A DNA stretch of 2,270 nt from Escherichia coli (lineage in GTDB: Bacteria; Pseudomonadota; Gammaproteobacteria; Enterobacterales; Enterobacteriaceae). Of the stretch, positions 164 through 213 are shown piece by piece. Made by a program: the position numbers and the translations under genes. Numbering within the stretch: position 1 is the stretch's first letter; every line of letters starts with the position of its first letter. The stretch lies in the NCBI RefSeq assembly GCF_003334335.1, contig NZ_QOWQ01000090.1, one strand, 5' to 3'. Below the pieces are notes generated by a model. That model was not told the origin of the DNA and made no database searches. It worked only from the letters and a program-made list of their open reading frames with translations.

Positions 164-213
164 GCTTACTTTGCCATCGCGTACAAAATCGGCAAAATAT
201 CAGATTTACACGG

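Follow-up and report, generated by a model that had tools for sequence, protein, structure and literature searches.

A probable phage-82-type promoter-proximal pause signal at the late promoter of a common Escherichia coli prophage

Just downstream of the predicted late promoter of an Escherichia coli prophage lies a short AT-rich segment in which a first-pass annotation had picked out, on the minus strand, two -10-like hexamers, TAAATC (208..203) and GATATT (201..196), and a direct repeat of ATTTTG (198..193 and 189..184). These were put forward as candidates for a site at which RNA polymerase pauses or the antiterminator Q engages. The questions raised by this locus are whether such a site exists and, if so, which of its bases compose it. 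Re-extraction by script returned all of these sequences at exactly those positions, with the starts of the two ATTTTG copies 9 bp apart and CAAAAT occurring twice on the plus strand. Coordinates throughout are those of the window, by which is meant the whole stretch of 2,270 nt that was analyzed.

All genes of the window are on the minus strand. They encode a DUF968 protein (2264..1278), a RusA resolvase (1277..912) and a Q antiterminator of 229 aa (921..232), the last assigned to the Q82 family from its open reading frame and a match over residues 6-222 to Pfam PF06323 (Phage_antiter_Q, 'Phage antitermination protein Q'; E = 1.1e-88). Over its full length (229 aa) this protein is 69% identical to Q of phage 82 (X92588) and to Q of phage 434, and the copy in E. 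coli JE86-ST05 is annotated 'bacteriophage antitermination protein Q'; a sequence search of the PDB, Q21 entries included, returned no solved relatives. A Q82-family antiterminator gene is therefore found directly upstream of the candidate pause region, as in phage-82-type late control. The JE86-ST05 prophage (L001) is 100% identical to the window, and downstream of the matching stretch it carries a small ORF, a DNA methyltransferase, three tRNA genes, TerB, an esterase, a holin and a lysozyme.

A near-consensus promoter, TTGCAA-17-TATATT, is predicted on the same strand as the Q gene and overlaps its end. The promoter scan places the PR' -35 element TTGCAA at 242..237 (minus), within the 3' end of Q, whose stop codon TAG is at 234..232, and the -10 element TATATT at 219..214 (minus), the two being separated by a 17-bp spacer (236..220). 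Transcription would begin at A207 (minus), seven bases past the -10 hexamer, a placement preferred because the resulting numbering reproduces the published positions of 82 pR' exactly, with GCC at +15..+17, G at +24 and U at +25. A transcript with +1 at 207 begins AAAUCUGAUAUUUUGCCGAUUUUGUAC. The terminator scan recognizes an intrinsic terminator, tR', at 159..139 (minus), comprising a hairpin (159..145) with six G-C pairs and a run of TTTTTT (144..139), and the predicted fold agrees. The terminator occupies the same place in all relatives and lies between the pause region and the late genes, the latter being seen in the source genome. An RNA terminated at tR' is predicted to be about 67-69 nt long. 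Approximately 45 nt past tR', at 84..100 on the minus strand, GGTCGTGAATAGCGACC forms another terminator-like hairpin with a T-rich tail behind it, ahead of the small ORF, which starts at 15.

Taken by themselves, the letters of the segment are not out of the ordinary. Hexamers that share at least four of six bases with TATAAT, A2 and T6 among them, number 80 on the two strands of the window, where dinucleotide shuffles give 62.7 +/- 8.4; for the 132-nt intergenic stretch the corresponding numbers are 4 and 2.7 +/- 1.4 (P = 0.28). At offsets of 6-12 the window has three direct repeats of six bases versus 4.6 in shuffles, and the intergenic stretch has one versus 0.22 (P = 0.15). The caution, voiced in the first-pass annotation, that short AT-rich repeats also arise by chance was thus justified. 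The only locally unusual motif is one that it had left unnamed, an extended -10-like TGnTATnnT at 202..194 (P = 0.03 for the intergenic stretch). Because the single-sequence statistics are so unremarkable, the case for function rests on relatives of the locus and on the literature.

The literature offers a close precedent in the late promoter of phage 82, at which the -10-like element of the initial transcribed region is nearer to consensus than that of lambda and is accompanied by an extended -10 motif (Bird et al., Roberts laboratory, PMC5001585). The 82 hexamer abuts a discriminator-like GCC at +15..+17, which is followed by an AT-rich segment at +18..+25, and the pause site itself is marked by G at +24, U at +25 and a base other than G at +26, with a further G at -11 from the paused end. 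The paused 3' ends map mainly to U+25 and secondarily to +26; that +24 is a G follows from the effect of a one-base insertion at +18, which brings a G to the pause site, and G/C-to-A mutations in the GCC cut pause duration 2- to 5-fold (PMC5001585).

With +1 at 207, every one of the published positional features of the 82 pause signal is present in the window. The sequence TGATATTTT at 202..194 (minus) provides an extended -10-like TG at 202..201 (+6/+7) and, at 199..194 (+9..+14), the hexamer TATTTT, which matches the TATAAT consensus at four of six positions and is the candidate sigma70-dependent pause element, both being at the 82 position. The hexamer is followed by a discriminator-like GCC at 193..191 (+15..+17), the same as in 82 pR' and the likely upstream part of the elemental pause signal, and then by the AT-rich GATTTTGT at 190..183 (+18..+25). 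G+24 falls at 184 and U+25, the predicted paused 3' end, at 183, while A+26, a non-G base and the second predicted paused end, falls at 182; the window also has a G at -11 relative to the pause. The segment 202..182 on the minus strand is thus very probably a sigma70-dependent promoter-proximal pause signal of a phage-82-type PR'. The broader proposal of the first-pass annotation, an early-transcribed -10-like element inducing the sigma70 pause at which Q loads, is well supported by the Q82-family gene and by this match of features. What did not stand, on register and conservation, was its choice of TAAATC, GATATT and the ATTTTG repeat as the functional units of the lambdoid pause element.

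The GenBank entry for phage 82 (X92588) ends at the stop codon of Q, and the comparison with authentic 82 consists of the positional features given in the text of PMC5001585 together with close relatives as proxies. The latter are viral contigs or prophages in which the final 29 nt of Q are exactly those of phage 82 and the encoded Q proteins are 93-96.5% identical to Q82. They carry AAATCTGATATTTTGCCAATGTTGTACG, which is identical to the window from +1 to +17 and differs at two of 28 positions, both later. Phage 82 and the window share the Q family (PF06323) and the layout in which a -35 element TTGCAA overlaps the end of Q. They differ in the -35/-10 spacer, the C-terminus of Q and the sequence between pause and terminator, and the 82-like proxies have two substitutions in +18..+25, AATGTTGT in place of the window's GATTTTGT.

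The Q-binding element (QBE) of phage 82 lies between the -35 and -10 elements (PMC4914094). By analogy, the putative QBE of the window would be located in the spacer at 236..220 (minus), upstream of the segment 184-208 in which Q engagement had at first been sought. The window's spacer is different from that of 82 and 434, and since the C-terminus of Q differs as well, the loading requirements of this Q could differ from those of Q82. The spacer shares bases with the 3' end of the Q coding sequence and is found in a few discrete types, AATAGAACTGAAGA, AAGTAGATTGAAAGG, AACTGGATTAAAA, AACCGAACTGAAA and AAGTCAATTAAAT; an identical initial transcribed region occurs with several of them. The most divergent part of Q is its C-terminus (residues about 180-229).

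Searching a phage collection with the DNA of the promoter region gave partial, distant matches only, and homologous promoters were for this reason gathered with the Q protein as anchor. Regions downstream of Q82-family genes were taken from 80 viral contigs and 14 phage genomes (Salmonella, Klebsiella, Enterobacter, Cronobacter, Hafnia, Morganella and E. coli). The 117 loci with a relative of Q yielded 50 distinct promoter regions that could be stacked without gaps, and these were represented by 17 lineages with 31-100% Q identity to the window, drawn from seven genera (Escherichia, Salmonella, Klebsiella, Enterobacter, Cronobacter, Hafnia and Morganella); the lineages share ancestry and are not fully independent.

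Five positions, T+6, G+7, T+9, A+10 and T+14, are invariant in 17/17 representatives (2.0 bits for the TG), and T+11 is nearly so. Between them +12 and +13 vary freely (0.45 bits), and beyond the pause site the positions +26..+60 carry 0.3-0.5 bits; T+25 is found in at least 80% of the representatives. In the promoter itself, TTG-AAAA of the -35 region is invariant in 15-17 lineages, and A(-11) and T(-7) of PR' are invariant across the 17, also when aligned with MAFFT. Stacking on the motif forces part of the invariance within it. This concern of circularity is answered in two ways: the interval between the -35 element and the motif is 40 nt in all 17 lineages, and a MAFFT alignment made independently of the motif recovers the same invariant columns (T48 and G49 for the TG), adding G+15 (G57) and T+23 (T65). 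Sigma70 reads the TG, T-12, A-11 and T-7 of an extended -10 element, and the remaining two hexamer bases least. Judged from the alignment, the invariant bases are the sigma70 recognition pattern and the freely varying pair are those that sigma70 reads least.

The conservation also bears on whether the segment is anything more than functionless AT-rich sequence. Its unremarkable single-sequence statistics are what such a reading would predict, but six bases are invariant in a fixed register across seven genera while their neighbours are saturated with change, and the match to the experimentally defined 82 element is exact in position; chance therefore has next to no likelihood as an explanation. 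Among all 117 loci a single variant breaks the motif. This is L008 (IMGVR_UViG_2585427748_000006; Q identity 91%), which has TGATATTTC, a change of T+14 to C, and which may belong to a decaying prophage.

If sigma70 does hold the polymerase here, it might do so in one of the registers originally named, with GATATT (201..196) or TAAATC (208..203) as the hexamer and the pause shifted upstream by about 2 or about 10 nt. GATATT shares four of six bases with TATAAT, A2 and T6 included, and lies partly in the conserved core, and at the position of the first hexamer some relatives, for example in the Salmonella and 434 lineages, have TAAATT, a good -10-like sequence. In the window, however, TAAATC (-1..+5) matches at only three of six positions and has no T at position 6. 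GATATT (+7..+12) is shifted by two bases from the conserved register: it opens with the invariant G of the TG, a base that is intelligible only if the element is read as TG-n-TATTTT, and its sixth base (+12) is among the two most variable positions of the family, with only 0.45 bits. In addition, the hexamer of 82 sits directly against +15 (PMC5001585). Both registers were rejected in view of the conservation at each position and of published work, and that either is the sigma70 element is quite unlikely.

It might instead be the ATTTTG repeat that is the functional unit, for instance as a site with two subsites for Q or a host protein, comparable with the Q21 binding element. The repeat is an exact one of six nucleotides with 9-bp spacing, and it is kept in many close relatives that have the same initial transcribed region. 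Outside that group it is lost, in 82-like relatives (ATTTTG/ATGTTG), in L018 (ATTTTG/TTTTTA) and in the 434, Salmonella, Klebsiella, Cronobacter, Hafnia and Morganella lineages, while the TG-TAT--T core stays, and it was rejected as functional on these grounds. The alignment with related prophages that the first-pass annotation had suggested as a check thus shows the repeat to be confined to one lineage, that with the exact initial transcribed region of the window, which argues that it is incidental. Its presence in the window is traced to the two substitutions that distinguish GATTTTGT from AATGTTGT. The first copy combines the hexamer, less its leading T, with G+15, and the second combines the AT-rich segment with G+24, parts to which different roles have been ascribed (PMC5001585). 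A repeat of this kind is expected in the intergenic stretch by chance with P = 0.15; the QBE of 82 is upstream of the -10 element (PMC4914094), away from the repeat; and conserved, Q-bound direct repeats of the Q21 type were not found, the ATTTTG repeat being unconserved outside one lineage. That the repeat acts as such a site is extremely improbable.

Another possibility is that +9..+17 is conserved for the sake of the RNA. Paired with +33..+41, it would supply the 5' arm of a hairpin in the short RNA that runs from PR' to tR', and this RNA might act as a small regulator; such a role could come on top of pausing. The centroid fold pairs UAUUUUGCC with GGCAAAGUA, a predicted 9-bp hairpin of 199..191 with 175..167 (minus) with the hexamer and GCC making up its 5' arm. 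Folding predicts similar hairpins in two other lineages, the 82-like and that of Klebsiella phage 2; in the latter (z = -3.5) the bases at +12 and +13 are different and still pair. There is also precedent in StxS for regulation by short PR'-tR' RNAs (PMC7547250). However, the invariant TG lies outside the stem, and the z-scores of the window (-1.5) and of the 82-like hairpin (-1.15) are unremarkable. The hairpin is absent from lineages that keep the motif (434, Salmonella, Klebsiella phi8.1, Hafnia, Morganella, LLS and Cronobacter), several of which (434, Hafnia, Morganella, LLS and Cronobacter) keep it with neither hairpin nor repeat. Within the close group the changes that disrupt the hairpin are one-sided, with zero compensatory changes, and an Rfam scan of the window returned no matching family. 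Conservation for the RNA is thus unlikely to explain the motif. There is a similarly slim prospect that the transcript of about 68 nt is a structured, constitutive small RNA that regulates in lysogens as StxS does, or that the hairpin aids escape from the pause or shedding of sigma.

On the plus strand, CAAAAT (193..198) could be read as the -10 element of an antisense promoter, with TTGCCA (171..176) as its -35 element across a 16-bp spacer, a paQ-like arrangement in which transcripts would run back through PR' and Q. The promoter scan does list TTGCCA-16-CAAAAT, with nine of 12 matches, and the -35 partner falls in a conserved GGCAA stretch. Yet sites of nine in 12 are near chance expectation (4 found versus 2.3 expected), the -35 partner is missing from many lineages that keep the motif, and such a promoter would leave the invariance of the TG at +6/+7 unexplained, which together make it very unlikely that CAAAAT has this role. 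The site (171..198, plus) points antisense into PR' and Q and recalls paQ of lambda. This site and the hairpin could, at most, represent additional functions.

The mechanism envisaged for the window follows the account published for phage 82, since that is the best supported. RNA polymerase holoenzyme would initiate at about A207 and, when the RNA is approximately 21 nt long, retained sigma70 would bind the non-template TG-n-TATTTT (+6..+14, 202..194) as it does an extended -10 element, anchoring the enzyme. Scrunching of the DNA would allow synthesis to extend until the polymerase is stopped by the elemental pause at +25/+26 (183/182). Q, made from the gene just upstream, would bind between the -35 and -10 elements and load onto the paused complex with the aid of NusA, and the Q-modified polymerase would read through tR' (159..139) into the late genes; without Q, transcription would yield only the short RNA of about 68 nt. 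For the prophage of the window, the start site, the pause and both the loading of Q and the dependence on it are inferred from sequence. Prophage late promoters are not mentioned in the NET-seq paper PMC7876045.

Comparison with other systems places the element among known sigma70-dependent pauses. Lambda Q belongs to a protein family unrelated to that of the window's Q. The lambda PR' promoter has a similar arrangement, in which a -10-like element in the initial transcribed region (AACGAT, +1..+6) is followed by a discriminator-like G/C block (GGG, +7..+9) and by an elemental pause some 10-11 nt downstream (+16/+17), where Q loads, and a short RNA is ended at tR'. It differs in that the element lies nearer the start by 8-9 bp and lacks the TG. 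The late promoter of phage 434 (OL657226), which has a Q82-like Q, is nearer to the window: the -35 element and spacing are the same, TG-n-TAT-n-n-T occupies +6..+14, and G+24, T+25 and A+26 are all present. The 434 promoter departs from the window in having TATGTT as its hexamer and GTA in place of GCC at +15..+17, and its terminator comes directly after the pause site. Sigma70 pauses of the lacUV5 type in host genes likewise combine a -10-like element and an upstream TG with a pause about 11-12 nt downstream (PMC3326312), but differ in being uncoupled from an antiterminator or QBE.

The late switch of this prophage is accordingly of the phage-82 type, with exact coordinates for its pause element, predicted pause site and terminator. 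The element itself is already known: it is a well-characterized phage-82-type pause signal, here in an uncharacterized but common prophage. A 109-nt query running from promoter to terminator was matched over at least 80% of its length in 906 of 5,426 complete E. coli genomes, O157:H7 EDL933 included. Because the module is so common, its correct annotation aids the reading of late-gene control in many prophages; past annotation the finding matters little. Of modest value is the observation that Q82-family promoters in seven enterobacterial genera keep only the bases read by sigma70, at a fixed distance from the promoter, and this conservation gives independent evolutionary support to the biochemical model of sigma-dependent pausing.

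The late region of the JE86-ST05 prophage has an otherwise Stx-type lambdoid layout, with methyltransferase, tRNA-Ile/Arg/Arg, TerB, DUF3927, a NanS-like esterase and holin at 10.2-16 kb of the L001 locus, and no stx genes at their usual position; the arrangement in EDL933 is the same. A mosaic boundary is evident at the terminator, between 1..162 and 163..921 of the window. PhiP27, mEp460 and many Stx2 phages have 84-91% DNA identity to the window that is limited to the tR' hairpin and the DNA downstream, and the Q-PR'-pause module has a set of relatives different from that of the DNA beyond tR'.
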